Shown piece by piece: positions 12,285 to 43,982 of a stretch of 64,000 bases of DNA (position 1 is its first letter; the number at the start of each line of letters is the position of its first letter). Below the pieces are notes generated by a model. It was not told the origin of the DNA, ran no database searches, and worked only from the letters and a program-made list of their open reading frames with translations. The position numbers and the translations under genes were made by a program. The DNA lies in NCBI GenBank assembly GCA_009784815.1, contig WQXN01000001.1:65857-129856 (forward strand). The letters run 5' to 3'. This DNA comes from Alphaproteobacteria bacterium. GTDB taxonomy: Bacteria > Pseudomonadota > Alphaproteobacteria > Rs-D84.

Positions 12285-13292
12285 TTATATATCTATCCGA
12301 TCCAATATACGGTTCATTTGGCCGCGGATATTGCCGTCTTGTCTTTTTAACTGGCTGCGGAGAGTTTTATGTATATCGGTGATTTTTAAGTCGTTTATCC
12401 CGGCGCGATCCAATACCCTTTGCCAGGCGCGCTTGGGGTCCACAAGATGCCCCGCTCCCGCTCCTGTGCTTGGAAATACGAATTTAGATTTCTGCGGGAG
12501 GGATTCAAGCAGCACTACCGCTTGGTCCGCAAGGGGTTTTCCGTTCCAAGTGTTAAGATTCAGGTCCAAATCGTCCCAGCGCATTGCTAAAACTTTGCTT
12601 TTGTTCGCAAAGCCGTAGGCCAGCATTTTAAGGGCCGCCCTCATGTTAGGGTTTTTTTCCATATCTATCGCGCGGCCGATCAGCGAAAATTCCCCCGCGC
12701 TGATATGGCGCGATCCTTTTCGTTCGAAAAATTTTTCAAGATCTTTTGTAGGATTGTCCGATGCGTATCCTTCTTCAATCGCGGCGTTGAATATAGCCGA
12801 CATGGTTTCCCGCATACGGTTAGCGGTGGACTGGCCGTTTTCCTGGGCGATTTTTGAATGCAGTAGCGACAACTGCGCCGGCGTTATGTCGGAAAGCTTC
12901 AGGGGCAGGACTTCGGTCCAAAGACGCCCTATGTTGCGTTCCAGTTTTTTCTTGGATGCCGCTTCACGCCGGACTCTGTGTTTCAAAAACAATTCCGTCA
13001 TTTTGCCCAAAGTCATTTTGCCGGTCCTGATCGGCAGCGGAGTTTTCATTTTAATTATCGCTGTACCGGCCAGCTCGCGCGCGTCGTCTATGTCTATGTC
13101 GGGATAGTTGCCCAGTATCTTGCGGGTGTCTTTTCCGCGAGCTCGTTTTCTGACGAAAAATGTTTTCGCTCCGTTTGCCGTAATATAAAGCTGAAGGTCG
13201 GGATGATACGAATCACGCACCACTTCAAAGCCGGTTTTCGGCGGTATCAGGCTGTCCAGGACGGCGGAAGTGAAGGGAAAGCGAAGCGACAT
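12285..13292 (-). CDS. Degenerate P4-type (Arm/DUF4102 N-terminus) phage integrase, probably catalytically dead
   Basis: The N-terminus ...FEVVRDSYHPDLQLYITANGAKTFFVRKR... is the typical integrase arm-binding domain. The ORF is only 335 aa. The LAMRWDDLDL and IHKTLR relics are present. I cannot find the C-terminal His/Trp...Tyr segment, and the first catalytic Arg position reads N/K. Confidence 0.6.
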   Translation of the reverse strand: MSLRFPFTSAVLDSLIPPKTGFEVVRDSYHPDLQLYITANGAKTFFVRKRARGKDTRKILGNYPDIDIDDARELAGTAIIKMKTPLPIRTGKMTLGKMTELFLKHRVRREAASKKKLERNIGRLWTEVLPLKLSDITPAQLSLLHSKIAQENGQSTANRMRETMSAIFNAAIEEGYASDNPTKDLEKFFERKGSRHISAGEFSLIGRAIDMEKNPNMRAALKMLAYGFANKSKVLAMRWDDLDLNLNTWNGKPLADQAVVLLESLPQKSKFVFPSTGAGAGHLVDPKRAWQRVLDRAGINDLKITDIHKTLRSQLKRQDGNIRGQMNRILDRIDI

Positions 13293-13454: not shown

Positions 13455-14171
13455 ATGTCTGACTTTACGCCCGATCAAGTGACCGGCATGAAGGCCGAGC
13501 TTGTACAAGGTTTTATGGATAAAAATATCCTGAGAATTGCAGCCGCCGAAGAAGAGCTTGCGCCGGAAAACGGCCCCGGCTGGTTCAGATTAAAAAATAA
13601 ATCCCTCTCGCCTTTGTTTTGGAGCATTCAGACCCTTCATTCTTATCCGAGATTATTCGAGCTTATGATTATTCTTATGTCCGAAAAAATCAACGAGGCC
13701 GGAATCCGATACGACCATATCATGGGCGTGCCCGAAGGCGGAAAATGCCTTGCGGCGGCGCTGGGTTTCTATCGCGACGAAAGCATTATTTATATGCGTA
13801 AAGAACCGAAAGATCACGGCCAGGGAGGCTTGTTGATCGGAGATTACAAGGAAGGCGACAAGGTGCTTGCGGTTGAAGACGTTATAACAAGCGGCGGTTC
13901 CGTGGATCGCGACGCGTCCGACAAGCTTATACAGGGTACCAGCGGCCAGCTTGAAGTGACAAGCGCCATAGTCGGGCTTGATCGCCAGCAGAAGGGCGCG
14001 GGCGAAGATCCGACTCAGAACGGCGCGGCCTACCTTGCTTCCAAGGGTATCGAATTGCTTTCCGTCTTCACTCAGGCCGAAGCGATAAAATACTGGGAGC
14101 CGAAAACCGATCATCATAAAGCCATGAAGCCGATCATCGAGGCTTATTTGGCGAAAACCATCGTATCGTAA
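13455..14171 (+). CDS. pyrE: Orotate phosphoribosyltransferase-like (type I PRTase)
   Basis: PRPP-binding motif KVLAVEDVITSGGS, upstream MGVPEGGKCLAAAL, and KEPKDHGQGG flexible loop. Adjacent to pyrF. Confidence 0.75.
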   Translation: MSDFTPDQVTGMKAELVQGFMDKNILRIAAAEEELAPENGPGWFRLKNKSLSPLFWSIQTLHSYPRLFELMIILMSEKINEAGIRYDHIMGVPEGGKCLAAALGFYRDESIIYMRKEPKDHGQGGLLIGDYKEGDKVLAVEDVITSGGSVDRDASDKLIQGTSGQLEVTSAIVGLDRQQKGAGEDPTQNGAAYLASKGIELLSVFTQAEAIKYWEPKTDHHKAMKPIIEAYLAKTIVS

Positions 14172-14183
14172 AAGGAGTTTATA

Positions 14184-15023
14184 ATGGCTAATGATAAGAT
14201 AATAGTTGCTTTGGATTATCCGAACGAAGGCGCCGCGCTTGAACTTGTGCGCAAATGCGACGGCCGTCCGGTAAAATTCAAAATAGGCAAAGAGCTGTTC
14301 ACCAACGCGGGGCCCGACATCGTGTCCAAGATCATAGATCTTGGCGGATATGTCTTTCTTGACTTGAAATACAACGATATATCGAACACTGTTAAGGGTG
14401 CTGCGAAAGCCGCCGCGAATCTTGGTGTGGACCTGTTCAATATGCATGCAAGCGCCGGATTTGAAAAAATGAAGGCGGCGAAAGAAGGCGTGACGGAAGT
14501 CGCCTCCAAGGAGCCGTTCAGAGAACCGAGAGTTATAGCCGTCACTTGTCTTACCGATATGGACGAGCATGATCTGAAATTGATCGGAGTAAACGAGACT
14601 CCGGCCGAATACGCCGCGCGCCTTGCGAACTTGGCCAAGCATGCCGGAATGGACGGCGTGGTCTGCTCTCCGAAAGAGCTGCCGATCATGCGTTATATTC
14701 TGGGTGACGACGCTACTTTGGTGACTCCGGGCATACGTCCCAGATGGTCCGAGGCCAACGAACAGAAACGCATTACCACTCCGGCGGACGCGATTGCTAA
14801 CGGAGCCACCATGCTGGTCATAGGCCGCCCGATTACGGGGCACGAGGATCCGGCCAAGGCGATAGATCTTATCGCGGACGAAATTTTGGCCGCCATGCCG
14901 CGATATAATTCGAACGTTTTGAATCAGGACGACAGGACAAAGCTGGATGACTATCTAAAGCAGCGCAACATGGAGCTTGCGGCTTATATGAAGCTTCGAG
15001 GCCGCCAGCAGAGCTGTTCGTAA
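14184..15023 (+). CDS. pyrF: Orotidine-5'-phosphate decarboxylase, with a roughly 40-aa C-terminal extension
   Basis: IIVALDYP..., FKIGKELF, FLDLKYNDISNTV (DxKxxD), LVIGRPIT. Confidence 0.9.
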   Translation: MANDKIIVALDYPNEGAALELVRKCDGRPVKFKIGKELFTNAGPDIVSKIIDLGGYVFLDLKYNDISNTVKGAAKAAANLGVDLFNMHASAGFEKMKAAKEGVTEVASKEPFREPRVIAVTCLTDMDEHDLKLIGVNETPAEYAARLANLAKHAGMDGVVCSPKELPIMRYILGDDATLVTPGIRPRWSEANEQKRITTPADAIANGATMLVIGRPITGHEDPAKAIDLIADEILAAMPRYNSNVLNQDDRTKLDDYLKQRNMELAAYMKLRGRQQSCS

Positions 15024-15030
15024 ATGTAAA

Positions 15031-15060
15031 AAACAAAGGGCCTTCCGGCCCTTTGTTTTT
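15031..15060. terminator. Bidirectional intrinsic terminator between convergent pyrF and the radical-SAM gene
   Basis: AAACAAAGGGCC-TTCC-GGCCCTTTGTTT perfect 12-bp stem, flanked by an A-run and a T-run. Confidence 0.8.
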
Positions 15061-15982
15061 ATCGCATCTTTTCTGATATTTTTTGTGCGGCAAGGTCAAG
15101 AAGTTCGTCGCGAAGCTGGCCTGCCGGGATGAACCGGCCTTTCTTATTCCTATAATTTACCGCTATGCTGTTGTCCATGCCTAAGGTGAGGGCAAGCTTG
15201 CCGTTGCTTGTGAAGTTGTATCCAAGAAAGCGCGACTCGCCTTTTTCTTCTATGTGATCCAGTTCGTCCTTCCAGTCCAAGTCGTGCTTGTGCGGCCAAT
15301 CCAGTTTTTTGGCGCGTCCTATGTTGATCAAATGTCCGCTCCATCTGTCCAAGCGCGTCCGGCCCACATATTCCGAAATTTTCAGTTTCTTTTCGTAAGG
15401 CAGGCCTGTGGCAAGAATCCGATCCATATTTTCGTTAAACCAGGCTGTTTGAATCATAACTTCCGAGCTTATGTTTCTAAGCTTCGGATTTGTGTAAAGC
15501 TCGGTCATGATCTGAATATTCTCGGAAAAATTGTCGTGCCATTGATCCATCGAAAGATGAAGCTTGAAAAGATCGGATGATTTGGTTGCCAGCAGCTCTA
15601 GGTCAGCTATGAAGCGGTCGTAATATTTTGCGCCGGCTTTGGCTATCCAGCCGTTGGTTTTAAGGATCATTAAAGAATTGCGCTTGATCCCGGCAAGGCA
15701 TATATCACTTAGGTAATTAGGGTCTATGTCGTAGGCAAGTGTGGCTTCGCCGCCGCTTATCAGAAACCCTCCGCATTTGAAGCGGGGGTTATGGCGCAGC
15801 TCGTCCATGTAGAATATTACGTCTTCTTTGGGTATAAGTTTGTTTTTTACGCCTGGCCCCGAATTCTCGCCGCAGTGCGCGCATGCAAGATTGCACGACC
15901 GGGTTATTGAAAACTTTGTCGTGTAGTCGACAGTCGCGCTTGCCAGTAGTTCGCGGATTTCCGAATATGATTTGTCTGGCAT
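15059..15982 (-). CDS. Radical SAM protein, function unknown (308 aa)
   Basis: CxxxCxxC cluster motif SCNLACAHCGEN and GGE motif FLISGGEATL. Start placed at the ATG at 15982 (MPDKSY...) behind an AGGAGGG RBS. The track start at 16054 is the TTG of a TTGACA -35 box and reads through the C9 tract. Confidence 0.8.
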   Translation of the reverse strand: MPDKSYSEIRELLASATVDYTTKFSITRSCNLACAHCGENSGPGVKNKLIPKEDVIFYMDELRHNPRFKCGGFLISGGEATLAYDIDPNYLSDICLAGIKRNSLMILKTNGWIAKAGAKYYDRFIADLELLATKSSDLFKLHLSMDQWHDNFSENIQIMTELYTNPKLRNISSEVMIQTAWFNENMDRILATGLPYEKKLKISEYVGRTRLDRWSGHLINIGRAKKLDWPHKHDLDWKDELDHIEEKGESRFLGYNFTSNGKLALTLGMDNSIAVNYRNKKGRFIPAGQLRDELLDLAAQKISEKMR

Positions 15983-16010
15983 TTTAACCCTCCTATAGGT
16001 ATGCAGACCT

Positions 16011-16038
16011 ATTTTAAGGGGGGGGGTAAATTTGTCAA
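16011..16038 (-). promoter_or_regulatory. Sigma70-like promoter with a C9 tract (coding-strand sense) in the spacer
   Basis: Minus strand reads TTGACA (16038-16033) AATTTA C9 (16026-16018) TTAAAAT (16017-11). The spacer is 15-16 bp. A second TTGACA lies at 16054-16049. Confidence 0.5.
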
Positions 16039-16182
16039 GTAAATAATTTGTCAAATATTAGTCGGGATATACAGACAGATGGCAAAAATAAAATAAGTTC
16101 GGGGCAAGCGACCGATGCCTGCGGCTGGGTTGGCTAGGCCAAACCAAGATCGCTGGGAAAGGGATGCTGGGCAGCCATGGGG

Positions 16183-20641: not shown

Positions 20642-20682
20642 ATTCATATATGTCAACTAATCAGTCAAAAAGGAAAGGCATT

Positions 20683-21066
20683 ATGAATAACAAAATACTA
20701 TTCGCTTCTGTTGCAATATTGGCCGCGGTTTCCGCAAGCGCGAACCAGTTGAAATTCTTTCGCGCTCTTAGTTGGGAAAAAGCCCATACCGCGCCCTTCG
20801 TATTTTCCGAAGACGTGCGTCCTGCCGCGCGCAACCAGATGGTGCGTTTCGATTCGATCCTATCGCGCTGCGGACTCAAGCTTGTCTATGTTCGCGCGAA
20901 CGACGGACGCAATGTCGAAATGAACGGAATAGCTTCATTTAAATTGGATGATACTTTCTGGAACGGCAAGGTGGCGATACACGCCTCAAGCCAGACCAGG
21001 ACCCTTTGTCCGAACGGCATTAATATAACCATCGGCGACGAGGAAGCCTCGGTGCGCTGGAAATAA
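20683..21066 (+). CDS. Small secreted protein, unknown function (127 aa)
   Basis: Signal peptide MNNKILFASVAILAAVSASA. AAAGGAAAGG RBS before the ATG at 20683. Confidence 0.65.
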   Translation: MNNKILFASVAILAAVSASANQLKFFRALSWEKAHTAPFVFSEDVRPAARNQMVRFDSILSRCGLKLVYVRANDGRNVEMNGIASFKLDDTFWNGKVAIHASSQTRTLCPNGINITIGDEEASVRWK

Positions 21067-21085: not shown

Positions 21086-21118
21086 AAACCCGCCGGCTAT
21101 TGCCTTGGCGGGTTTTTT
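21086..21118 (+). terminator. Rho-independent terminator
   Basis: AAACCCGCC-(12-nt loop)-GGCGGGTTT followed by TTTT. Confidence 0.75.
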
Positions 21119-21146
21119 AATTTATAATTCCAAAAAAGGATTAACA

Positions 21147-21713
21147 ATGGGCGATTGGGGTTCCGCTGTTTATGTGACCAGTCAGATTTTGCAAGGCTTG
21201 GCGTATCTGCTTCTGATGTTCACCTTTTTTATAATAAGCAGAAAATTGCAACTTGCGGCCGTTATTATCGCAAGCGTGTTTATGGGCGCGGGGTTTTTAT
21301 TGCTAGGGGGGGGCATGGGCGCCGCTGTGCTTGGCGTCGCTGTATGCCGCGATGTTACAAGTTATTATCTTAACGGCGCAAGGAAACCAGAAGACAGAAG
21401 CAAGATTACGAAATCGGATTGGTGGCTTTTGGCTTTATGGGCGACTTTGGCGTCCGCTCTCTCGCTGTTCGCTTATCACGGGTTGCCAAGCCTGTTCGCC
21501 TATTTCGGCATGATGTCTTTTACCGTCGCCATATGGCAGAAAAATCAGGCGATATATCGTATTCTTGGCGTTCTTGCCGCGGTCTTTTGGATTATCTATA
21601 ACGTGGTTCTGGATTCTTTTGTGGGCACGGTGTTGGAGGGCGTATTCCTGTTATCCGCCGTCATGGGCTTGATATTGTATTTGAAAAATTACAGTTCTTT
21701 CAGAAAAGTATAA
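21147..21713 (+). CDS. Integral membrane protein (weak resemblance to the YgjV family)
   Basis: About six hydrophobic helices. AAGGA RBS before the ATG at 21147. Contains an in-frame G8 tract at 21306-21313. Confidence 0.6.
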   Translation: MGDWGSAVYVTSQILQGLAYLLLMFTFFIISRKLQLAAVIIASVFMGAGFLLLGGGMGAAVLGVAVCRDVTSYYLNGARKPEDRSKITKSDWWLLALWATLASALSLFAYHGLPSLFAYFGMMSFTVAIWQKNQAIYRILGVLAAVFWIIYNVVLDSFVGTVLEGVFLLSAVMGLILYLKNYSSFRKV

Positions 21714-22291
21714 AAATTTTTCGTCGGATCGCAAGTTTTGTTTGTGGATTTTTTGCGGAATATTTCCCGGCATCCGTTCTTGATATAAAAATCCACTCCG
21801 CATGAATCGTCCGTGTCTATACGCAGATTACGGGCGTTGTGTTTCTTTGATATGTCGCACAATTTATTGAATAGCGCGTTCCCGAATCCCTTGCGGCGCG
21901 CGCCTTGGCTTATTATAATTATTGTTTCGTCCGAGTCGAATTGCCCTTCGAATTTTTTGGGAAGATAGTCGTACGCGGCATAGTACCGTTTGATTAATTT
22001 CCGAATTTTTCGCGGCTGGATCGCAACTATTATGTTAAACATTATTTTTGATATGAATCTTTGTATGGGTGCGCGGCGCGATCCGTAGATTTCTACTCCG
22101 GCGAATCCGACGGTTTTTCCGTTTTCTCTGATTTTTATGAATTCATTTGTGCGCATGATGATTTCGAACGCGTATAGATAGTCGCACGTTCCGGATTTGC
22201 CGGTGGCTTTCTTTCCTAAATCCCATTGCCGGCCTATCATTTTTGCAAGCTTGGCTACGTTAAAAATGGATGCTTTTTGAATCTTGATCAT
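21689..22291 (-). CDS. GNAT-family N-acetyltransferase
   Basis: Acetyl-CoA motif ISQGARRKGFGNALFNKL (Q/R-x-x-G-x-G/A). Confidence 0.75.
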   Translation of the reverse strand: MIKIQKASIFNVAKLAKMIGRQWDLGKKATGKSGTCDYLYAFEIIMRTNEFIKIRENGKTVGFAGVEIYGSRRAPIQRFISKIMFNIIVAIQPRKIRKLIKRYYAAYDYLPKKFEGQFDSDETIIIISQGARRKGFGNALFNKLCDISKKHNARNLRIDTDDSCGVDFYIKNGCREIFRKKSTNKTCDPTKNFYTFLKEL

Positions 22292-22339: not shown

Positions 22340-22368
22340 TTGTGCCGATTCGTTCGATTTGCTATAAT
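22340..22368 (+). promoter_or_regulatory. Candidate extended -10 promoter for the pilus-like cluster
   Basis: TTGTGC 22340-45, 17-bp spacer, TGcTATAAT with TATAAT at 22363-68. GGAAAGGAAA RBS before the ATG at 22404. Confidence 0.5.
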
Positions 22369-22403
22369 TACGATAATAGTCAGGGGAAGGAAAGGAAATA
22401 GAC

Positions 22404-23222
22404 ATGTTTCAAAGAATTATAGCGGGAATCTTCGCGTTATTGGCCTTCGCGCCTATGGCCGCGCATTCCTGGTCGGATCGAAGCCAACTGGTTTGGGAAG
22501 GTCCCGAAGATGTATCGCCCGAGAATACTGCGGCGTCTGCATCGTCGGCGCCGGCGGCGGCCGCTCGGCCGTCCAGGCAGGCAAGACCTTTTGCTCCGCA
22601 GGAATCGAATTTTCGGGCGTCTGGTCTTCGCGTCAGCAATCAGATTATAACCAATAATTTCGGCGATCAGTATTCTTTCTCGGGCGGGCCGGACCTTATG
22701 CACGGCAACAACGCTCCGGCTGGATTCAACGATAATTCGCAGGCCGCTATGCCGCTTTTGACTCAAGGCATGGTCGAGGATGACGGCGGAGCGGCGCTTG
22801 CCGTGACCCAGAGCGACCGCCGCGCGCCGGCCGCAAACCGCGATGTTATGGTGTCTGACGCCGTCGTTGACGGCGGAACCCGCGTTATGAGCGCCGACGA
22901 TATGGCCGAGGATTTTGACGCTGCGGCCGACGCCGGTTCCGGCGCGGACGTTGTTAAAAGCTGGGTAGTGATGTCGGGCAAAACCCTGCGCGAAGTTTTG
23001 GGCGAATGGGCCGAGAACGCCGGTTGGGATCTTGTATGGAATACGTCCCGCGAATATCCGATTTCCGCAAGCGCCGTTTTCGAAGGTCGGTTCATGGACG
23101 TGTCGTCGGCTTTGGTGCGTAACTTTGCGCGCGCGACGCCGGTTCCGCACGCAAGATTTTATAAGGGGAACAAAGTGCTTGTCATAAGCACTTTGGAAGA
23201 TGGAGACAGCAATGCTTATTAA
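22404..23222 (+). CDS. Periplasmic protein with a C-terminal TcpQ/PilL-like domain (type IVb pilus accessory)
   Basis: Signal peptide MFQRIIAGIFALLAFAPMAAHS and an Ala/Pro/Asp-rich linker. The C-terminus SWVVMSGKTLREVLGEWAENAGWDLVWNTSREYPISASAVFEGRFMDVSSALVRNF...FYKGNKVLVI matches the TcpQ/PilL signature as I remember it. Confidence 0.65.
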   Translation: MFQRIIAGIFALLAFAPMAAHSWSDRSQLVWEGPEDVSPENTAASASSAPAAAARPSRQARPFAPQESNFRASGLRVSNQIITNNFGDQYSFSGGPDLMHGNNAPAGFNDNSQAAMPLLTQGMVEDDGGAALAVTQSDRRAPAANRDVMVSDAVVDGGTRVMSADDMAEDFDAAADAGSGADVVKSWVVMSGKTLREVLGEWAENAGWDLVWNTSREYPISASAVFEGRFMDVSSALVRNFARATPVPHARFYKGNKVLVISTLEDGDSNAY

Positions 23223-24777
23223 AAAATATTTTGTCATAGCTTTGGCGGCGGTCGCTTTGGCGGCTTGCAACAAAAAGCATTCGACGCAGGTGGCAGGCGA
23301 AGTCGACGACGGCTTCATAAACGCGTTCCGCGCTATGGAGCAGTCCCGTATGCCGCAAAACCGCATGACGGTCGACAGCGTGTCCGCAAGCGAGGGCGTA
23401 TGGCTTGGGGCGCGTTCCACCACCATCCGGCACAGGAACGATCTGCCGCGCAGATTCGAGGGAGAAAACGGAGTGACCATAGTTCTGGACGAGCCTGCGA
23501 CGCTTAACAGTTTGGCCGGTACCATTCACGAAGTAACCGGAATTCACGTAACGATCGACGGGCAGATTTCATCCGAAAAACTGGCCCGGACTTTTCAAAT
23601 TTCGCACAGCGGAAAGCTGTCCGATCTTTTGACCCGCGTCGCAAACGAGGCGGATGTCATGTGGTATTACGACAAGGAGAGCATAGTCTTCTTCGAGACC
23701 GAGACCAGAACCTTTAACCTATTCGCGCTTGGCACCGACATAAGCTTTTCGTCCCGCATTCAGACCGACGATTCAAATCAGGTGTCCTTGGAGTCCAACC
23801 TGCGCGAGTGGGATGAGATCGAGCGTTCGATCACAGGAATCTTGGACGGCGCGTCAAGCGCGCGCTTTACCGTGTCAAGGTCGCTTGGTACTATAACCGT
23901 CACCGCTTCCCCGTCCGCAATGAAGCGCGTCGGAGATTATATCGCGCGTCAAAACCGCCGTTTGTCCCAGCAGATTTCAATCGATGTCAAAGTCTTGCAG
24001 GTGTCCATTCAGAATGCGAACGCCGTGGGCCTGAACCTTACCGCCGCCATTCAGTCGGTGGGCGGTTTGCGTCTTGCCTCGAACCCGTCCAACAATCTTT
24101 CGGCCGACACTATAGGCGCTATATCGGGCTTGTCGGTCGCCGTGCTGGACAACGCCACGACTTTGGGCTCGGCGGCGGGCACTACCGCTTTGGTTCAGGC
24201 TTTGGCCAGCCAGGGCAAGGTATCCTTAATGACCAACGCTTCGGTCACGACGCGCAACAACCGCGTGGCCCCGGTCAGCAACGTTCGTAACACCGGATAT
24301 ATCCGCCGCATAGAATCCCGAACTTTCACGACCGTCGAATCCTCGAGCGTCGAGCAGGACACGGTCGAAACCGGATTTTCGATGCAGTTGCTGCCGAACA
24401 TTATCGAGAACGGCCGCGTATTGTTGCTGTTCAAGATGTCATTGCGCGAATTGATCCGCATGAATACCGCTCAAATTGGCGGAGGTGGCGGAAGTCCGGG
24501 CATCACAATACAGATGCCTGACGTCGAAGAGCGCGCGTTTATGCAAGAGGTAATTTTGGAATCGGGGCAGACTTTGGTCATATCGGGATTCGAGAGGCAG
24601 ACGAACGACGATTCAAGATTCGGTATCGGAGAGGCGGACTTTATGGCGCTGGGCGGATCGCGCGAGACTTCAAGCGCGCGCGACGTTCTGGTCGTAATCT
24701 TGACGCCGCAGGTTCACATATCCCCCATGGATAGCGAACGCGCCGCTATGCGTGAATTCGGTGCGCCGCTTAATTAA
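23212..24777 (+). CDS. Lipoprotein secretin (R64 PilN / BfpB / TcpC type)
   Basis: Lipobox LAAC after MLIKKYFVIALAAVA. Secretin C-domain: ISIDVKVLQVS..., GKVSLMTNASVTTRNNRVAP, GFSMQLLPNIIENGRVLL, QTLVISGFERQ. GGAGA RBS before the ATG at 23212. Confidence 0.85.
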   Translation: MLIKKYFVIALAAVALAACNKKHSTQVAGEVDDGFINAFRAMEQSRMPQNRMTVDSVSASEGVWLGARSTTIRHRNDLPRRFEGENGVTIVLDEPATLNSLAGTIHEVTGIHVTIDGQISSEKLARTFQISHSGKLSDLLTRVANEADVMWYYDKESIVFFETETRTFNLFALGTDISFSSRIQTDDSNQVSLESNLREWDEIERSITGILDGASSARFTVSRSLGTITVTASPSAMKRVGDYIARQNRRLSQQISIDVKVLQVSIQNANAVGLNLTAAIQSVGGLRLASNPSNNLSADTIGAISGLSVAVLDNATTLGSAAGTTALVQALASQGKVSLMTNASVTTRNNRVAPVSNVRNTGYIRRIESRTFTTVESSSVEQDTVETGFSMQLLPNIIENGRVLLLFKMSLRELIRMNTAQIGGGGGSPGITIQMPDVEERAFMQEVILESGQTLVISGFERQTNDDSRFGIGEADFMALGGSRETSSARDVLVVILTPQVHISPMDSERAAMREFGAPLN

Positions 24778-24807
24778 GAATTGTCGCGGGGAAAATTTTG
24801 GAGAGAG

Positions 24808-26076
24808 ATGGCAGGGCAGGTAATATCTATTGGTCGGAAAAAATACGCGACCGGGCTTTTTTGGCAGCCGGTCGGATCCGCTCGCTCGGCCAAGGATGTC
24901 GCCGTTAAAATATCAGAATCTAGTCCCAAGGCGAAATTCAGATATTACGCGGAATATCGCAATCAGGTTGGGCTTGGATCCTTCGCGCTGAAGCATGCCG
25001 CCGGAATGACTCCTTTGGCTGCCGAAGTCGCCGAGAGTTTCGGAGATTCTACGTCGTTCGCCGCCGCCTTCAAAGTGGGGTCGGGCTATTATACTTTGGC
25101 CGTAAGGAACGGCGTTATACTATCTGATTCGGACCGCCTTTTTAATGATGAGAATGCTGCGCGCGCCGCTTATGCTTCGTTGCTGGAACTGCCGGATTGG
25201 TCTCTTCGCGTCGCTCCGGAATCATGGGGAATCCAAGGCGCCGAGGCGCGAACTTTGGAAGACTTGGTGACCGGCCGTGTCAAAAGCGCGCTGCGTCCGA
25301 TACATACTACATTCGGTTCGGTATTCAATATCGCGCTTGTTCTTGCCGCGATATTGGGAGTTCTGTATTTCTTTAGTGCCGACATAAATCACATGATTGC
25401 GCGCCGCCCAGCCGCGTCGGCCATGACCGAAGAATCGGCCCGCCGCTTCCACGAGGAAATGGCCGCGCGGAATATTCGGCCCGAGGCGCCAGCGCCAAAG
25501 CCCGAAGCGTTAGTTATGCCTTGGGATGACATCCCGGACCATTCGGAAGTGTCCGCCCGATGCGTGCGCGCGATAGCCTTCGTCATGCAGCCCGTGTACG
25601 GCTGGAACGTCGTGTCCGCCGAATGCCAGAACGGATCAATCCGCGCGCTTATGCGCCGCGACTACGGCACGGTCGAAGACCTTTATGCCGTGGTCAACAC
25701 CATTATGCCGGGAATCGGTATACGCATAACCGGAACCGCCGGGTCCGACGCCGAACTTACCGGAGTTTTCGCAAAAACGCCGGGAGAATCCGCCGCGCCG
25801 GAATGGTCCCTGTCCGAGATCGAGCGGCGCGTCCGATCGGTCTTCCAGCAGGTCAATATGCAGGTCGATATTTCCCGCGGCCGCGAGATAGTTTCAAGCG
25901 AAGACGGGTCGGTGCGGAAAACCGCCGAGTTCGTGCGCCTTCGCGCGGATTCAAAAATCATGCCGGTAGAATTCGCTAAATTCTTGGAAGGAATTCCGTC
26001 CGTCGAGCTTGTGTCGATAAGATGGGACAATGTCCGAAACATTTGGAGTTACGAGGAGAAGATATATGCAAAATAA
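24808..26076 (+). CDS. Bitopic membrane protein in the PilO position of R64-type clusters
   Basis: One TM segment (VFNIALVLAAILGVLYFF). The assignment rests on gene order between the secretin and the PilP-like gene. GGAGAGAG RBS before the ATG at 24808. Confidence 0.5.
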   Translation: MAGQVISIGRKKYATGLFWQPVGSARSAKDVAVKISESSPKAKFRYYAEYRNQVGLGSFALKHAAGMTPLAAEVAESFGDSTSFAAAFKVGSGYYTLAVRNGVILSDSDRLFNDENAARAAYASLLELPDWSLRVAPESWGIQGAEARTLEDLVTGRVKSALRPIHTTFGSVFNIALVLAAILGVLYFFSADINHMIARRPAASAMTEESARRFHEEMAARNIRPEAPAPKPEALVMPWDDIPDHSEVSARCVRAIAFVMQPVYGWNVVSAECQNGSIRALMRRDYGTVEDLYAVVNTIMPGIGIRITGTAGSDAELTGVFAKTPGESAAPEWSLSEIERRVRSVFQQVNMQVDISRGREIVSSEDGSVRKTAEFVRLRADSKIMPVEFAKFLEGIPSVELVSIRWDNVRNIWSYEEKIYAK

Positions 26077-26788
26077 AAAACTTATTATATTCGCCGCATT
26101 GCTGGGCTTTGCCACGCCCGCTTACCCGACCGAAATAGATCTGGACGCGTTCGATACCGATGGGTCTGTGTTCCTTCGCATAACCGAGCTTGAACAGGAA
26201 AAAGTCCTGATGAGGCTTGAAAAAGAGCGCGCCCAGCTTGAACTGGACCTTAAGCGAATCGAGGTGGAAAGGCAACGCATCGCGGGCACCGTCCAAACCG
26301 CCTCGGCCGGTTCTGTCGCAGAACAGGTCGCGGCCGGAATCGAAGCCGAGCGTAAAAAGCTTGCGGCCGAGATGGACAAGATCAGAAAGCAGATGGAGGA
26401 TATGAGAAAAGCCGAAGCCGCGCCCGAGCGCGTTCAGGCTAGAACTGCCGCCCAGCCCGCGCCCGTCGAAGAAGACGAGCTGGATATATCTGATCTGTTT
26501 CGCATAATAAGCATTACCGGCAGCGATGGAAACCTTACCGCAAATATTGAAAACATTACCACCGGACAGCGCCGCAGATTGGGCGCCGGACGGTCGATAG
26601 ATGGGTTTAAAATAGTTTCCGTATCGGCCGACGACGGGGTGGTGTTCGAACTGGACGGCGAGCAGTTTCCTCTTGGGCTGATACAAAACGCTAGGCCCGT
26701 TTTGGCTGCCCCCGCCGTGTCAAGGCCCGCGCCAACTGCCGCCGCGGCGCCCGCCGCAACCGGACCTGCCGCCAGACAGGAAAGATAA
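26066..26788 (+). CDS. PilP-like periplasmic protein (signal peptide, coiled coil, C-terminal beta domain)
   Basis: MQNKKLIIFAALLGFATPAYP, then a charged coiled coil, then ITGSDGNLTANIENITTGQRRRLGAGRSIDGFKIVSVSADDGVVFE, which resembles the PilP/GspC HR-type domain. Confidence 0.55.
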   Translation: MQNKKLIIFAALLGFATPAYPTEIDLDAFDTDGSVFLRITELEQEKVLMRLEKERAQLELDLKRIEVERQRIAGTVQTASAGSVAEQVAAGIEAERKKLAAEMDKIRKQMEDMRKAEAAPERVQARTAAQPAPVEEDELDISDLFRIISITGSDGNLTANIENITTGQRRRLGAGRSIDGFKIVSVSADDGVVFELDGEQFPLGLIQNARPVLAAPAVSRPAPTAAAAPAATGPAARQER

Positions 26789-28417
26789 ATGGCGCAGAAC
26801 ATCGGAAATTTTTCAAAAGATTCGCAAAATTCCGTTCCGGGTAACGTTGGAAACATGGATTCCAAAAAAATAGTGGATTTCCTGTTCGCAGAAAACAACC
26901 AGCTTTTGACCGGATTCAAAGGACGGCTGGAACTTCCCAAAGACACTCAGAATCTGGTCGCGTATTTCCTGGGCGGAGAATTGGTTATATCCCGCACCCA
27001 CAAGTTCGACGGCCGGGTGCTGGCTTTCGTTTCCCTTATTCAGCGCGAAAATCTTCCGCTTAAAGAGCCTTTCTACAGCGATCTTGGATTGTTGTCTGCG
27101 ATTTACAAGTATGGCGATGAAAAACTTGGCACAGAGGTGGCGAAATCCCGCCTTGATTACGACAACCAGATGCAGAAGGATTTCGTCGACATAGTCGCGC
27201 GTGCGTCTGCCATTAAAGTTTCTGACATACATATCGAAGTTGCGAACCACACCACGATTTATTTCCGCCGTGACGGAGGAATGCAAACCGTCCTTGAATA
27301 CAGCGCCGCATGGGGAGAGAGTTTTATCCGTGCCGCCTTCGCTTCCGCCGATATTTCAAGCAGCAACTACGCCAAAAACGAATATCAGTCCGCGCAGAAG
27401 GACGGCCGCACTCCGCTTCGCGGCACGAAAGACCTTTACCTTCCCGCGGGCGTTCTTGGTATCCGTATGCAGTTCAGTCCGATCGCCTTCGGATCGCGCT
27501 ATGTCGTCATGCGCCTGTTGTACGAAAACCCTACCGATGGAATCAGAATCGAACAGGAGTTCACAGAATACGAACAAAGAATCCTGGCGCGCCTAAGGTC
27601 TTTCCCGACGGGCCTTGTGGTTGTGGCGGGACCTACCAGCAGCGGAAAATCCACCACGCTTTTTCAGAACATGACATTGATGCTACGCGAGCGGGATTAC
27701 GAAATAAACCTGATAACCGTCGAAGATCCGGCCGAACGCAAAATCTTCGGCGCCCGCCAGATGCCGGTTGTGAACGCCGGTACCGAAGAGGCGCGCGACG
27801 AAAAATTTACCGAAGCTTTGGCTTCGGCCCTTCGTTCCGATCCGGACGTTCTTATGGTCGGAGAAATCAGGACCCTGTCGGTCGCGGCTCTGACGCTTAA
27901 GGGCGCGCTGTCCGGTCATTTGGTTTGGACTACATTGCACGCCAATTCCGCGCTTGGTTCGCTGACCCGTCTTATCGATATGGGCATCGAGGCCTTTAAA
28001 TTGAAAGACGAAACTATGATGAGGGGGCTGATGTCCATGAGGCTTTTCAAGACGCTTTGCCCCCACTGTCGCGAGCCGATTGCGCGCCATCCGGACACAA
28101 AGATCTATTCGCGCGTTTTGGACTATTTCGGCGAGATCGGCTTGGCGCAGATCTTTATCAAAGGCCGGGGCTGCGAGCAGTGCGGCGGAAAAGGCACCGT
28201 AGGCCGGGTCAAAGCCGGCGAGATAGTGCTGACCGACGCCAAACTTCTTGAGATGATGACGAATGGCGACAAGGCGGCCGCGTTCGCGTATTGGCTTGAA
28301 AAGCAGGGCGGGCGCACTTTGAAGGAAGCCGCGTCCGAATTGATGTTAAGGGGGCGCGTCGGGGCCGACGAACTGGAACGATGGGTCGGCCTGATCGACC
28401 AGCCGACCGTTTATTAG
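26789..28417 (+). CDS. GspE/PilB-family assembly ATPase (R64 PilQ type)
   Basis: Walker A GPTSSGKST, Asp box ITVEDPAE, Walker B DPDVLMVGEIR, His box GHLVWTTLHAN, tetracysteine CPHC...CEQCGGKG. Confidence 0.9.
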   Translation: MAQNIGNFSKDSQNSVPGNVGNMDSKKIVDFLFAENNQLLTGFKGRLELPKDTQNLVAYFLGGELVISRTHKFDGRVLAFVSLIQRENLPLKEPFYSDLGLLSAIYKYGDEKLGTEVAKSRLDYDNQMQKDFVDIVARASAIKVSDIHIEVANHTTIYFRRDGGMQTVLEYSAAWGESFIRAAFASADISSSNYAKNEYQSAQKDGRTPLRGTKDLYLPAGVLGIRMQFSPIAFGSRYVVMRLLYENPTDGIRIEQEFTEYEQRILARLRSFPTGLVVVAGPTSSGKSTTLFQNMTLMLRERDYEINLITVEDPAERKIFGARQMPVVNAGTEEARDEKFTEALASALRSDPDVLMVGEIRTLSVAALTLKGALSGHLVWTTLHANSALGSLTRLIDMGIEAFKLKDETMMRGLMSMRLFKTLCPHCREPIARHPDTKIYSRVLDYFGEIGLAQIFIKGRGCEQCGGKGTVGRVKAGEIVLTDAKLLEMMTNGDKAAAFAYWLEKQGGRTLKEAASELMLRGRVGADELERWVGLIDQPTVY

Positions 28418-28426
28418 AGGTGAATT

Positions 28427-29500
28427 GTGGCGACTAAACTGGATATTATTTATTCAAAATTCATGTTCAAGCTGGACACCGACAAAAGGCTTGGGTCCTA
28501 TAGAAAATTATCCAGCCTGCTGCGGAACGACTTCACTTTGACCGAAGCTTTGATCCGGCTGGAAGCTATAGAAAGCCGGGACGGAAAAAAACCGAACGAG
28601 CCTTTTGCTATAGCGTTCCGCGAATGGCAGGCCAAACTTGAGCGAGGATATACTTTTTCCGAAGCCATATCCGGCTGGGCAAGCGAGGTGGAAATTTTAA
28701 TGCTTTCGTCTTCCGATATATCCAAGCTTTGGATCGCTCTGGACAACACCGTCCGCATAGTGGAGGGAAGCAGAAAAATCCGAAACGCTTTGGTGTCCGC
28801 TATTACTTATCCCATGTTCCTGCTTGCCGCTACTTTCGCGATCATAATAATGGTCGGAGTCTATTTGCTTCCGCCTATGCTCGAGGCCGCGGGTCGCGAC
28901 GTCGTATGGCGCGGCACCGCGCGAAGCTTGGTGGCAACATCGCGGTTCTTTGGTGATAATTGGATCATAATGCTTGCGGCATTCGTTTTTGCTTCGGTTA
29001 TTATCGGTTATTCCATGCCTTTGTTCCGCGGGCGGATTCGCGCTTTGTTCGACAATGTTCCGCCTTGGTCGCTTTACAAAGTGTCCGCAAGCGCCGGATG
29101 GTTGGTAAGTCTTGCGTCCCTGATCAAGGCGGGCGCAAGTTTGCCCGAAGCGCTTAAAATGATGTCTGGAAATTCCAACAAATACTTGGCTGACGTGTCG
29201 GACCGCGCGCTTGAAGGCGTGATAGCGGGGCAAAATCTGGGCGATGCGCTGGACGTGGCGGGCCTGCATTTCCCGAACGACGAGATTATCGGAGATCTTA
29301 AAATCTATGCCGAAATGGACGAGTTCGACAAAAACCTTATGAATGTCGCGACCGAATATATGGACGGATCGGTAACGCGGATCGAGTCGGCCGCAAGCGT
29401 TCTAAACTCGGTCGGCATACTGCTGATCTCGGTCGTGATAGCCTGGGTCGTATTCGGAACTTTCGAAATGCAGGACCAGGTGGCCGCCGCTATTTCCTGA
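28427..29500 (+). CDS. GspF/PilC-family inner-membrane platform protein (R64 PilR type)
   Basis: 357 aa, GTG start, three TM segments and two cytoplasmic helical repeats (...EALIRLEA..., ...LPEALKMMSG...). Confidence 0.8.
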   Translation: MATKLDIIYSKFMFKLDTDKRLGSYRKLSSLLRNDFTLTEALIRLEAIESRDGKKPNEPFAIAFREWQAKLERGYTFSEAISGWASEVEILMLSSSDISKLWIALDNTVRIVEGSRKIRNALVSAITYPMFLLAATFAIIIMVGVYLLPPMLEAAGRDVVWRGTARSLVATSRFFGDNWIIMLAAFVFASVIIGYSMPLFRGRIRALFDNVPPWSLYKVSASAGWLVSLASLIKAGASLPEALKMMSGNSNKYLADVSDRALEGVIAGQNLGDALDVAGLHFPNDEIIGDLKIYAEMDEFDKNLMNVATEYMDGSVTRIESAASVLNSVGILLISVVIAWVVFGTFEMQDQVAAAIS

Positions 29501-29792
29501 TTTTTAATAAATAGACTCCCGAGGAATAGGTAAAGGATTTTATTAAATGCGCGATCGATGGATGCTCAAGCCATAGGGGAAATTCTCTGCGGATTACTCC
29601 GGTGCCGCGTTTCGGGTCGCCGACTCCGGTGATGAACTTGATTGCGCCGCAGCCGTCGGATGATGAGGATTTTATTAAAGCGATCACCGTATTGAATGCG
29701 TCCATAGAAGTTTTTCCGTGCAGGTCGATCGTTTTGTCCGCGCGCAATTTTCGAATATCGGGAGCGGCCAAGCGGCGCTTCATTTTCGTCAT
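29490..29792 (-). CDS. Smr-domain protein
   Basis: DLHGKTSMDAF...IKFITGVGDP...GVIRREFPLWLEH. ATGA-type overlap with the asmA-like gene upstream. Confidence 0.8.
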   Translation of the reverse strand: MTKMKRRLAAPDIRKLRADKTIDLHGKTSMDAFNTVIALIKSSSSDGCGAIKFITGVGDPKRGTGVIRREFPLWLEHPSIAHLIKSFTYSSGVYLLKIRK

Positions 29793-32302
29793 CGGTTTAG
29801 CATCGCGCGGATATAGTCGGGATTGATTGAACGAGAGGCCGAATCCAGATCAAAGGTTGGTCCGGTCTTTGTCAGTATAACATCCAGCGGCGCCGGATTT
29901 ACGGTCGCGTTTCGGAATAAAACCGAAATCGAAGTGTCCTCCGTCCCGATCCACCCGCTTATGGACGCATTGTCCGATCTTAGCTGAAACGGGGCGGCGG
30001 AAGTAATTTCGGAACCGTTAATCCTTACCGGAATATTCATGATCCTGATCGGCATTTGGGCGTTAGGCGCGAATGCGGCGTTCACAAAATCGACTAGATT
30101 TCCACGCGATATGGACGGATTGAATATTGCGCGCGTGTCTATGCCGCGGACTGTTCCGCCTTCGAAATTAAGGTCCGCCGTACCCTCCATATTGTTCCAT
30201 ATATCATGCGCGATCAGCCCAAATGTGGTAATCAAGGCCTCTCCAGAAAGCTGTGTATTTCCTATATCTATTCCGGCAAATCTATTCAAAAAGCCGGGTA
30301 TTTGGAAGCGCGATGCTTTGACCGAAATCGTGTAATCCGCTCCTCCGCGGCGTTGTATTTCGATCAGCAATTGACCGTTTGATCCGTCTGTTACGGATAT
30401 TCTCTGTACATTGCCGGTTTTGGAATAGATCATGTTTCCATACTCGCGGCCTTTGAATGTCACCCGGTCTGCCGTTATGGAAAAGTCCTTATCTATTCTG
30501 AAAAGCGCGGCTATGGGATCGTTGTGAAGAAACTGCAGTCGTTCATAATCCGTCCGCCATGCCGGGCTTATAATCTTGTCCAGATCAAGGTTCGCAGTGC
30601 GAAGATCGTTCGCCGGGCCGGTTATTGTTTGATCTCCTATATCGAATTGCATATTGATGCTGTTCCTGATACGTGTCGCCGCGAAGGGCAAGTCCTGCAT
30701 TATGAAGCCTGAATCGAATCCGCCCCATATCAAAGGAATGGCTCTGGCTAGATTTCTGCCTTGAAAATGGAAATGTTCGGTGGCCAATTGCAGATAAAGG
30801 CCTTCGTCTTTTCTGCCTATTTGAAGTTTTTCCGGAATGACTTCCGCGACTTTGCCTTCAGAATATACCGGTTCGGAAATAAAGGCTAAGGTGTGGCCGC
30901 GAAGTCGTTCGCGCAGCGCGGAGGGGATCTTGTCTATGATCGGCATAGAAAACGGAATGTCGCGTATCCTTGCGTTCTCGGAACTGAATCTTTTTTGATC
31001 GCCCGTGCGTTCGAATATTGTCGGATTTTCACCGGGGAATATTATGAACAATCGGGTGCCCGGCTTTATATTGGCGTTTCCGCCAAGCGATTTTATTATC
31101 CCGGATTTATCCGATCCGGAATAATCTTTTATCGAAATCAAAAGGTCGTCCGGGCTGTGGTCCCGCCCGCCCAAAAACACGGCGTTGCCCGATATTCGCC
31201 AAGCCTGGGTCGTTATCGACAGATCGTCGCATTTCCAGTTATCCGAACGGAACTTGCCGGTAAGGGTGCAGCGGAACGACGCGGGTTCGGCTATCCCGAT
31301 TATGTCTTGCGCGTTTACCTTATGAAGGGATATTAAAAGTCCGTGCGGCACGCCGTCTATTATATGTCCGCGGGCGCGCAGCTGGAACCCGTCGCCTATA
31401 AATTCGGCGCGGGTTATTTCGTCTTGATTGGTTTCAATAAGTACCCGCCTTACATCCCGTCCGCGGAACTTAAATTTGCCTTCTCCCTCGACCCGCAGTA
31501 TTTTTTTTGCCAGATCGGTGCTGTAAAGTTCGTCAAGATTGCCTTCTGTGACCATGATGTTAATCTTGTCCGCTCCGTGATGAGGGACCGACATACTGCC
31601 GGTTAAAATGGCGTCGCTTGCGAATAACGACATCGAATTAAATTCCAGTCCGGCCATACCACATACGAAATCCGTAGATATTGCCCAGGGCCGCGCCGCG
31701 CTTTCCCCAAAACTGAAACCGAAACCGTTTATCCATTCTTCTAGGTTCGGAAACGATCCGTTGAATTGGCCCTTAGCCTCGATAGAATTTCCTATGATCC
31801 TATATTCCGCTTTGGTTTTTAGCGAAAGGCTGGGAGCTTCGATTATGGCGATGCCGTCTTTTATATTTGCAATGTATCTTCGCCCTTGATGCTGGAAGCT
31901 GCCTCGGAATGCTTTGCCGTTAAGACTTGCTCGGCCGTTGATTGAAGCAAAGGTTTGTCCGCGTATGCTGGCTGTTCCTTCTCGTACTGATACTGCGTCT
32001 GGAACCGAGATCATGTTGGGCTGAAACAGGTACCTTAGCCTTATGGGGAATTGTACGCTGTCCGCTTTCGCCTTGATCATGTCGGATCTGATTTCCAAGT
32101 CGTGCGCGCGAAGAACCGGCCTTGGCGCCAGGATTATTTTAACCGGACCCGAGATTTTAGCATTGTTTCCTATTCTTGCCTCGATCCCCGGCTTTAGGTA
32201 CGAAAAATCCGTTAATGCCGGGAAAATAATTATCCCGACGGCGGCTATTGCGGCGACCAGCGTCGTAAACCAGATGATTCGGGCCTTAAATTTACGTTTC
32301 AT
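29789..32302 (-). CDS. AsmA-family outer-membrane biogenesis protein (837 aa)
   Basis: N-terminal anchor IIWFTTLVAAIAAVGIIIF followed by ...LTDFSYLKPGIEARIG...ISGPVKIILAPRPVLRAHDLEI. The rest is a long beta-rich body. Confidence 0.7.
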   Translation of the reverse strand: MKRKFKARIIWFTTLVAAIAAVGIIIFPALTDFSYLKPGIEARIGNNAKISGPVKIILAPRPVLRAHDLEIRSDMIKAKADSVQFPIRLRYLFQPNMISVPDAVSVREGTASIRGQTFASINGRASLNGKAFRGSFQHQGRRYIANIKDGIAIIEAPSLSLKTKAEYRIIGNSIEAKGQFNGSFPNLEEWINGFGFSFGESAARPWAISTDFVCGMAGLEFNSMSLFASDAILTGSMSVPHHGADKINIMVTEGNLDELYSTDLAKKILRVEGEGKFKFRGRDVRRVLIETNQDEITRAEFIGDGFQLRARGHIIDGVPHGLLISLHKVNAQDIIGIAEPASFRCTLTGKFRSDNWKCDDLSITTQAWRISGNAVFLGGRDHSPDDLLISIKDYSGSDKSGIIKSLGGNANIKPGTRLFIIFPGENPTIFERTGDQKRFSSENARIRDIPFSMPIIDKIPSALRERLRGHTLAFISEPVYSEGKVAEVIPEKLQIGRKDEGLYLQLATEHFHFQGRNLARAIPLIWGGFDSGFIMQDLPFAATRIRNSINMQFDIGDQTITGPANDLRTANLDLDKIISPAWRTDYERLQFLHNDPIAALFRIDKDFSITADRVTFKGREYGNMIYSKTGNVQRISVTDGSNGQLLIEIQRRGGADYTISVKASRFQIPGFLNRFAGIDIGNTQLSGEALITTFGLIAHDIWNNMEGTADLNFEGGTVRGIDTRAIFNPSISRGNLVDFVNAAFAPNAQMPIRIMNIPVRINGSEITSAAPFQLRSDNASISGWIGTEDTSISVLFRNATVNPAPLDVILTKTGPTFDLDSASRSINPDYIRAMLNR

Positions 32303-43691: not shown

Positions 43692-43982
43692 TTATTCTTC
43701 CTCGATCATTTTTGGTACTGCAAAATATGCGTTGTTTCCTACGTCCGGGGCATTCGACATAAGAGCTTCCAAGCAGTCGCCTTCGGTAACTGTATCTTCG
43801 CGAAAACGTTGAGGAATGACTGCCGGCGATATCATGGGCTTGACATTCGCGGTATCTATTTTGTTAATGCTTTTTGCTATCGCTTCTAAGTCGTCCATAT
43901 TTAGCTTCTCTAATTCTTCTTCGGTTAGGGCTATGCGCGACAGTTCCGCGAATTTTTTCAGACTTGCTTTTGAAAATGACAT
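43692..43982 (-). CDS. gatC: Asp/Glu-tRNA amidotransferase subunit C
   Basis: 96 aa. ...FAELSRIALTEEELEKL... and ...DTANVKPM... are typical GatC. Confidence 0.9.
   Translation of the reverse strand: MSFSKASLKKFAELSRIALTEEELEKLNMDDLEAIAKSINKIDTANVKPMISPAVIPQRFREDTVTEGDCLEALMSNAPDVGNNAYFAVPKMIEEE

Follow-up and report, generated by a model that had tools for sequence, protein, structure and literature searches.

The stretch of DNA analysed here, hereafter called the window, comprises 64 kb of contig WQXN01000001.1 from an alphaproteobacterium of the order Rs-D84 and contains six tightly packed, co-directional genes (positions 22404–29500, + strand) which, on the evidence of their sequences, encode the assembly core of a type IVb pilus of the R64 thin-pilus/bundle-forming pilus (BFP) class. 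This core is chromosomal, vertically inherited and fixed in Rs-D84, and does not represent a decaying island. The genes for the fibre itself do not accompany it; the absence of a pilin gene in cis is real, derived and clade-wide, and is no artefact of the window. We infer that the core is probably part of a working type IVb machine, the pilins and prepilin peptidase of which would be encoded at a third locus and the fibre of which would serve cell–cell contact with a partner or a host.

Composition and family assignment of the cluster

An earlier note on this DNA, made from its letters and translated reading frames, had described the six co-directional genes as an R64-type (type IVb) module. 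Profile searches named all six products as proposed there and placed every one of them in a type IVb family, in a gene order that matches the IncI and Yersinia clusters (Table 1). The best match of the assembly ATPase in the Protein Data Bank (PDB) is BfpD (entry 8dze, E value 1.5e-69), followed by GspE (1.9e-47) and, at lower rank, PilB/PilF, and the sole sequence match of the secretin in the same database is BfpB (9u5s, E value 1.1e-45). Among the NCBIfam models the secretin scores best with TIGR02520, the PilN-family type IVB secretin (258.5 bits, which lies under the equivalog cut-off of 287.65), followed by MshL (108.9 bits) and SctC (42 bits). It is 31% identical to PilN of the Yersinia plasmid, and a search of plasmids returned 2,940 matching records; among the matches listed, almost all are annotated as PilN type IVB secretin. 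Profile hidden Markov models (HMMs) of the clade detect the Yersinia PilO2 (E value 2.6e-25) and PilR (E value 4.7e-69), and weakly PilP (E value 1.2e-4). The reference clusters of Yersinia pseudotuberculosis p_153kb and of the IncI plasmid share the gene order TcpQ/PilL-(M)-N-O-P-Q-R, and the window cluster likewise combines a PF06864 PilO2, a TcpQ protein and a PilN-type secretin in the order L/TcpQ-N-O-P-Q-R that marks the R64 variant. It is on the matches to BfpD, BfpB and PilN, taken together with the pilL-N-O-P-Q-R order, that the assignment to the R64/BFP class is based. In the TXSScan model of type IVb pili (T4bP), pilB, pilC, pilQ, pilA and pilD are mandatory, at least four of them are required, the genes may be spread over several loci and pilD is treated as a loner (PMC6668835); the components present here are the ATPase (pilB class), the platform protein (pilC class) and the secretin (pilQ class, of the lipoprotein type).

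The NCBI/JGI product names point elsewhere, the ATPase being called 'Flp pilus assembly complex ATPase component TadA' and the secretin bearing a CpaC-type name, but a canonical type II secretion system (T2SS) or Tad/Flp pilus is highly improbable. The TadA-family model gives the ATPase a weak 35.7 bits, against 217 bits for GspE and 192 bits for PilB, and its nearest solved relative is BfpD; the secretin matches BfpB alone in the PDB and has the PilN type IVB family as its top NCBIfam model; TcpQ and the PF06864 PilO2 are specific to type IVb systems (PMC3984277); and no GspC/L/M, no TadB/TadC pair and no CpaB/RcpC are among the families found in the profile searches. Assignment of the genes to a complete T2SS or Tad system would have overturned the type IVb call; none of the profiles pointed to one, and six-frame motif scans revealed no Flp-type G-x4-EY motif.

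The TcpQ protein consists of a Sec signal peptide, a low-complexity linker and the C-terminal TcpQ domain. Its gene start at 22404 is backed by the signal peptide, by a ribosome-binding site and by the same N-terminus in the homologues of two related loci (L002 and L021); the later start chosen by the gene caller (22698) was rejected, as the signal peptide would be lost. The secretin has a lipobox (VALAAC), and PilO2 crosses the membrane once, near residue 180, with its N-domain in the cytoplasm and its C-domain in the periplasm, a bitopic architecture that agrees with the published one (PMC3984277). The PilP-like protein, whose gene lies between those of PilO and the ATPase in all relatives, contains a signal peptide, a coiled coil and a small C-terminal β-domain; a single-sequence AlphaFold2 (AF2) model shows helices followed by six strands at low confidence (predicted local distance difference test, pLDDT, 55, too low for a fold search). 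The catalytic boxes of the ATPase, which the earlier note had described as intact, are indeed all in place: Walker A (GPTSSGKS at residue 281), the Asp box (309–316), Walker B (VLMVGEIR at 354), the His box (SGHL at 375) and the zinc motif (CPHC at 424 and CEQC at 462).

When the gene starts of the source contig are used, the tight packing reported previously is confirmed, comprising 11-nt overlaps at 23212–23222 and 26066–26076 and a TAA-ATG junction at 26786–26791. The further proposal of one promoter for the whole cluster stands in part. The extended −10 motif TGCTATAAT is present and is followed by a purine-rich ribosome-binding site, GGAAAGGAAA, ahead of the TcpQ gene; the −35 element is weak, matching the consensus at just three of six positions, for which reason a consensus scanner did not list the site. 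TGCTATAAT is a promoter-like motif, which falls short of proof of a promoter.

Table 1. Genes of the cluster and adjoining features (positions in the window)
Feature	Positions	Strand	Evidence
Promoter-like motif: extended −10 TGCTATAAT (22360–22368), −35 TTGTGC (22340–22345), 17-nt spacer	22340–22368	+	Read from sequence
TcpQ/BfpG/PilL-class periplasmic secretin partner, 272 aa	22404–23222	+	Pfam TcpQ PF10671, E value 2e-20, residues 186–262
Outer-membrane lipoprotein secretin, PilN/BfpB class, 521 aa	23212–24777 (alternative ATG 23200)	+	Secretin PF00263
PilO2/BfpC-class bitopic inner-membrane protein	24808–26076 (alternative TTG 24781)	+	PAP_PilO PF06864, E value 2e-13
PilP-like periplasmic protein, 240 aa	26066–26788 (alternative ATG 26030)	+	TIGR03021, 31.6 bits, E value 2.8e-7; under the cut-off of 34.65
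Assembly ATPase, PilQ(R64)/BfpD class, 542 aa	26789–28417	+	T2SSE PF00437, E value 1e-61
Inner-membrane platform protein, PilR/BfpE/GspF class, 357 aa, GTG start	28427–29500	+	T2SSF PF00482, two repeats
Smr gene, convergent to the cluster	29490–29792		Pfam search
AsmA-family gene, convergent to the cluster	29789–32302		Pfam search

Absence of fibre genes in cis

Fibre genes were sought in the window, in the 10 kb that follow each of its ends on the 238-kb source contig and in related loci. The latter were 80 loci obtained by an ATPase-based scan of one genome per GTDB species, for which 10 kb on each side of the ATPase were inspected, and three further lineages in which 10 kb on each side of the secretin were inspected. 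Every six-frame open reading frame (ORF) was scanned for prepilins from each possible start, using strict and relaxed versions of the class III signal motif (G-x4-E and then a hydrophobic stretch); pilins from IncI, Yersinia and three outside relatives served as tblastn queries, and small HMMs for PilS, A24, the transglycosylase and PilM were run against 19,254 ORFs.

No major pilin with a class III signal peptide was found in cis in the window, its flanks or about 95 related loci, and no A24 prepilin peptidase, the loner of the T4bP model, in the window or any Rs-D84 locus. Pfam searches of about 30 otherwise unnamed window genes returned no Peptidase_A24, and GxGD occurs in no multi-transmembrane protein of the window. 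Neither tblastn nor the small reference HMMs detected PilS, PilV, PilU, PilT or PilM in the window or the related loci, and a five-sequence PilS HMM that included the pilins of the closer outside relatives gave no match either in the window or in any locus of Rs-D84. PilS, the PilV tip adhesin and PilM, which the R64 variant encodes together with its machine, are thus not encoded with the machine here, and are present in an outside relative (L094). Searches for a lytic transglycosylase in the window, in its 10-kb flanks and around the homologous genes in about 85 related genomes gave no match. The statements of the earlier note that pilin, prepilin peptidase and adhesin genes are missing in cis, and that no ORF of the 64 kb has a prepilin-like leader with Glu5, have therefore withstood a motif scan, Pfam, tblastn and HMMs, all of which came back empty; discovery of pilS, pilU or pilV just outside the window would have overturned that note, and none lies within 10 kb on either side.

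Several candidates were examined and rejected. Gaps and insertions in or beside related clusters (L004, L021, L030 and L051) hold a Cys-rich 661-aa protein, lipoproteins and regulators, and no pilins; the small ORFs that follow the secretin in Enterousia-type genomes encode soluble paralogues, rpsT, a VOC-like protein and a coiled-coil protein, none of them a pilin. The longer reading of a 138-aa ORF upstream of the cluster (20650–21066) has a leader-like sequence (KRKG/IMNNK...), but in L002 the reading frame is interrupted by a stop codon before the internal Met, and the ORF therefore encodes an ordinary Sec-secreted protein starting at 20683.

Occurrence and conservation in Rs-D84

The records of the 80 loci carry the names Candidatus Enterousia, 'Rickettsiales bacterium' or 'Alphaproteobacteria bacterium' and originate from termite gut, rumen, horse, chicken, mouse and rabbit. 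Rs-D84, the order to which Enterousia belongs, has genomes of less than 1 Mb that lack most biosynthesis and standard transporters, and an obligately symbiotic or parasitic life has been proposed for its members (PMC12306168); in termites, they are present both with and without gut flagellates (PMC11257099). The host-associated setting suggested in the earlier note agrees with these gut-bacterial relatives and reduced genomes. In those papers mentioning Rs-D84 that were examined for pilus terms, no description of a pilus in the order was found. The records of L015 (OZ246409.1), L037, L055 and L077, which include a 716-kb 'chromosome', are titled 'uncultured Muribaculaceae bacterium' and look like taxonomic mislabels.

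The identity to the window protein is 67–83% for the ATPase (80 of 80 loci), 46–78% for the platform protein (79 loci), 29–57% for PilO (79 loci) and 31–51% for PilP (80 loci), with UvrB, used for comparison, at 68–87% (four loci); secretin orthologues are 55–76% identical among the protein-database matches listed. The core ORFs are full length nearly everywhere in the related loci. The ATPase appears to be about as conserved as UvrB, and the core would be under strong purifying selection.

In the window the cluster is flanked by gyrB-dnaN-dnaJ and uvrB, with identical synteny and context in three termite-gut metagenome-assembled genomes, and the GC content at the third codon position (GC3) of the six genes (0.585–0.68) is similar to that of dnaN, gyrB and uvrB. 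A check for flanking conjugation genes or an integrative and conjugative element (ICE), recommended in the earlier note, was carried out: with housekeeping flanks and native GC3, neither transfer, relaxase, integrase or type IV secretion system (T4SS) genes in the flanks nor foreign composition was found, and the cluster is not on an ICE.

The arrangement of the core varies within the order. The secretin gene adjoins PilO-PilP-ATPase-platform in just five loci (L002, L003, L004, L021 and L030), and TcpQ is visible upstream of it in four of these. In about 75 of the 80 loci PilO-PilP-ATPase-platform follows DUF374-lpxK-lpxC and a small lipoprotein gene and precedes parE, and in the split lineages the TcpQ-secretin pair, seen in three of them, stands between sufBD and rpsT-plsY-dprA-dnaA.

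Other genes recur beside these loci. A conserved lipoprotein of about 105–130 aa with paired cysteines is encoded directly upstream of PilO and co-oriented with it in 65 of the 80 loci, those of Enterousia-type genomes (L006:7651–7965 and equivalents), where it occupies the place that the secretin has in the contiguous arrangement; it has no family match and no homologue in the window, and could serve as an accessory component or as a pilotin-like factor. Divergent from TcpQ in three lineages is the gene of a conserved 168–183-aa protein (47–64% identity; L084:8255–8806, L090:8214–8720 and L091:7999–8532, all on the − strand) that has a single transmembrane helix at its N-terminus and is helical in its C-terminal part, likewise without a family match or a window homologue. 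In the same lineages dprA lies next to dnaA, a few kb downstream of TcpQ-secretin (L084:14402–15418, L090:16324–17346 and L091:14523–15539). Twelve Rs-D84 loci have virB3-virB4 about 4 kb upstream of PilO (for example, L015:1328–4034). In L004, from a termite-gut relative, the platform gene is separated from the AsmA-like gene by a 2.8-kb insertion, which encodes a cysteine-rich, lysine-rich secreted protein of 661 aa (L004:13136–15121), flanked by short repeated ORF fragments.

Comparison with clusters outside Rs-D84

An exhaustive search of 1.84 billion representative proteins with the ATPase as the query showed a gap in identity, with Rs-D84 at 67% or more, a few sequences at 50–55% and all others at 42% or less. 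At 51%, the sister contig L093 carries TcpQ-secretin-PilO-PilP-ATPase-platform, followed by a hairpin and T-run terminator and 445 bp without an ORF. Its ATPase (L093:6894–9209) has 771 aa owing to an N-terminal extension of about 230 residues made of acidic, proline-rich tandem repeats (MPLPPVLPPEAEDDALP...) that is not present in Rs-D84, and a TrbC gene lies upstream of its cluster (L093:221–583).

The three nearest clusters beyond these (L094/L095, L096 and L097; 35–42% ATPase identity) share the six genes of the window and their order, and carry, 12–200 nt after the platform gene, the gene of a PilS/Bundlin-family pilin. L094, which shares 40.5% identity with the window in the ATPase (about 42% in the protein search), 37.5% in the platform protein and 34% in the secretin, has a Bundlin/PilS pilin (leader ...CERG/RTMIE), then PilM and a Shufflon_N PilV, which the window lacks. 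In L096 the PilS pilin gene directly follows the platform gene in a chromosomal mutL...mraZ context, and in L097 the PilS pilin and a PilT-like ATPase are followed, 5 kb further, by an A24 peptidase; I-type T4SS genes (DotD/TraI/DotB/IcmT; L097:1787–4600) lie beside this last cluster.

Since a pilin after the platform gene is the rule in the outside clusters, its loss from cis is a derived trait common to L093 and Rs-D84. The missing peptidase is normal for the family, because an A24 gene is likewise lacking within 10 kb in L094 and L096 and pilD is a loner in TXSScan (PMC6668835); the missing pilin, on the other hand, is a real oddity, because every outside relative examined has one right after the platform gene. 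The recurrence of T4SS genes near the pil genes (in L093, L097 and 12 Rs-D84 loci) suggests that the pil core descends from the thin-pilus operon of a conjugative element.

Among the known systems, the R64/IncI1 thin pilus (pilL–pilV), with kin on PAPI-1, SPI-7, Y. pseudotuberculosis p_153kb and Burkholderia pseudomallei Tfp7, is built from the same families in the same order (PMC3984277), and its R64/IncI and Yersinia references are 21–32% identical to the window proteins. R64 possesses PilS, the PilV adhesin/shufflon, the PilU peptidase, the PilT transglycosylase and PilM, whereas the window cluster has none of them in cis; unlike the R64 kin, it is off plasmid and ICE, is fixed across an order of reduced genomes and usually occupies two loci. 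Its chromosomal location has a precedent in the B. pseudomallei pil cluster. In the BFP of enteropathogenic Escherichia coli (EPEC; bfpA-G-B-C-U-D-E-F-P-H-I-J-K-L), the bfpG-B-C-U-D-E order is that of the six genes here, BfpD and BfpB are the nearest solved relatives, and the BfpB–BfpG complex is the template for the structure of the secretin with its TcpQ partner (PMC12531336). The EPEC operon lies on a virulence plasmid and includes the bfpA pilin, the bfpF retraction ATPase, the bfpP peptidase and minor pilins, whereas the window cluster includes none of these.

Neighbouring genes and other features

The convergent Smr/AsmA pair described earlier as following the platform gene was confirmed by profile hits. 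Neither Smr nor the ygjV-like and GNAT genes on the other side of the cluster (21105–22291; GC content 0.42–0.46, the lowest of the region) have a counterpart in the closest relatives (L002–L004), and they look like lineage-specific insertions beside the cluster. The 127-aa Sec-secreted protein encoded at 20683–21066 (+), which has two cysteines, was found in the window, L002 and L003 alone, and in the two relatives its gene directly precedes TcpQ; it has no family match, its AF2 model is unusable (pLDDT 40), and it could be a seventh, lineage-specific component.

An integrase-like ORF (12285–13292, −) located 9 kb upstream of the cluster matches the Arm-DNA-binding and central domains and has no catalytic-domain match; a similar ORF occurs in L004. 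Beyond it, 13653–16054 holds a 396-aa ORF without a family and a radical S-adenosylmethionine-like ORF. Transfer RNA and Rfam scans of the 64-kb window gave nothing. This region, at 12–16 kb, may be an old, decayed integration site. Past the 3′ end of the window, at 3–7 kb (L088:14626–18874), five tandem genes encode soluble paralogues of about 208–434 aa with a 'YLPNDY...SPWF' motif and no Pfam family, which may form an expanded effector-like family. Within the window, the GatA homologue (42753–43691, −), encoded between gatC (43695–43982) and gatB (41338–42753), has 312 aa, compared with 488–494 aa in related genomes; the first 74 or so residues and about 100 internal ones are gone, and it is 31% identical to the Enterousia-type GatA. 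It may be a degenerate or remodelled amidotransferase subunit. The 40–44 kb region shows a strongly negative AT skew.

Discussion

By homology, the lipoprotein secretin would form the outer-membrane channel and the TcpQ-domain protein would surround its periplasmic rings, as BfpG does around BfpB in a 17:17 complex (PMC12531336). PilO2 would resemble BfpC in having one domain in the periplasm and an actin-like domain in the cytoplasm, where PilO2/BfpC adopts such a fold (PMC3984277). Together with the PilP-like protein, which would bridge to the secretin, PilO2 is predicted to link the channel to the inner membrane, where the hexameric ATPase would turn the polytopic platform so that pilins are lifted from the membrane into the fibre. 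One or more pilins and the prepilin peptidase would be encoded at other loci of an already scattered machine, and its role would be gut contact with partner or host cells, possibly alongside the VirB-type T4SS of the lineage. The R64 thin pilus brings cells together for a T4SS, and the recurrent proximity of T4SS genes would fit this precedent.

The location of the fibre genes elsewhere in the genome is favoured because the machine itself is already divided between two loci in most relatives. There are precedents for parts encoded in trans, as T4bP are modelled as multi-locus systems with a loner pilD, and mannose-sensitive haemagglutinin (MSH) pilus loci regularly lack a prepilin peptidase, which is presumed to be borrowed from elsewhere in the genome (PMC6668835); MSH loci do keep their pilins and belong to another branch of the superfamily, the window secretin scoring 108.9 bits with MshL versus 258.5 bits with PilN. 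A number of results weigh against this location. The six-frame scan for G-x4-E and a hydrophobic stretch found no prepilin in the 64-kb window; the 10 kb past each window end contain no pilS, pilU or pilV, just housekeeping genes and the soluble paralogue family; neither a prepilin nor an A24 peptidase was found within 10 kb of the ATPase in the 80 genomes or of the secretin in the three further lineages, and there is no retraction ATPase in cis. The searches for fibre genes reached roughly a tenth of any single genome. A genome paper on Rs-D84 reports no type IV pili for the order (PMC12306168), no fibre gene follows the platform gene in the sister contig, and, as PilS is kept in all three outside clusters, the clade has changed something basic.

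It could be that the clade lost the fibre genes at its base and that the machine was repurposed without pilins as a gated outer-membrane conduit, or as an ATP-driven piston for export or uptake at partner contact. In favour of this are the lack of a prepilin or A24 gene in any of the about 95 loci examined, the cis pilin found in the three nearest outside clusters and in neither the sister contig nor the clade, and the strong constraint on the core in genomes of less than 1 Mb. We consider it unlikely, however, as the platform and the zinc-binding ATPase are the parts acting on pilins and are the best conserved ones here, as just about 10% of any genome was covered, and as the machine is demonstrably scattered in the clade; to our knowledge, no type IV filament machine works without pilins. 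That the whole order kept the secretin, alignment proteins, ATPase and platform and discarded the pilins and peptidase, leaving a contact-dependent import/export gate that is possibly VirB-coupled, is doubtful; if true, such an order-wide machine would be the first type IV filament machine to work without a filament.

There is a small chance that the fibre genes do lie in trans and that their product is a short pseudopilus, used either for protein secretion, as the toxin-coregulated pilus (TCP) secretes TcpF, or for nucleotide-scavenging DNA uptake. Rs-D84 lacks nucleotide and amino-acid synthesis as well as standard transporters (PMC12306168), in three lineages dprA has been kept within a few kb downstream of TcpQ-secretin, and neither a retraction ATPase nor a PilV-type adhesin is encoded in cis, all of which would suit such a role; but dprA is widespread in non-competent bacteria, comEC/comEA were seen in none of the loci, no conserved candidate secreted substrate lies beside the genes, and type IVb pili are not known for DNA uptake, Com, type IVa and archaeal pili being listed for this role (PMC6668835). 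Very unlikely is a non-functional remnant of a domesticated conjugative element, that is, a thin-pilus operon minus its 3′ end. The T4SS genes that adjoin outside clusters (DotD/TraI/DotB/IcmT in L097 and TrbC in L093), virB3-virB4 a few kb upstream in 12 Rs-D84 loci and the fragmentary integrase 9 kb upstream in the window are compatible with such an origin, whereas the six ORFs are intact with their catalytic motifs, their composition is native, and they occur order-wide with housekeeping-like identity in genomes shorn of most dispensable genes (PMC12306168).

A working machine with its fibre genes in trans would have a functional analogy, and an analogy only, in the Saccharibacteria (Patescibacteria), ultra-small, partner-dependent episymbionts which keep type IV pili for host binding (PMC11623550); those pili are of another class and from another phylum, and their pilin genes are known. 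In the 2019 TXSScan survey, T4b systems were found in Gammaproteobacteria, Acidithiobacillia and Nitrospirae only (PMC6668835), and the cluster described here extends them to Alphaproteobacteria, where they had not been catalogued before. Members of Rs-D84 are frequent in metagenomes of rumen, hindgut, termite and human-associated origin and are thought to live off partner cells, but descriptions of a contact apparatus are lacking; an order-wide type IVb machine with housekeeping-grade conservation is an obvious candidate for this apparatus.

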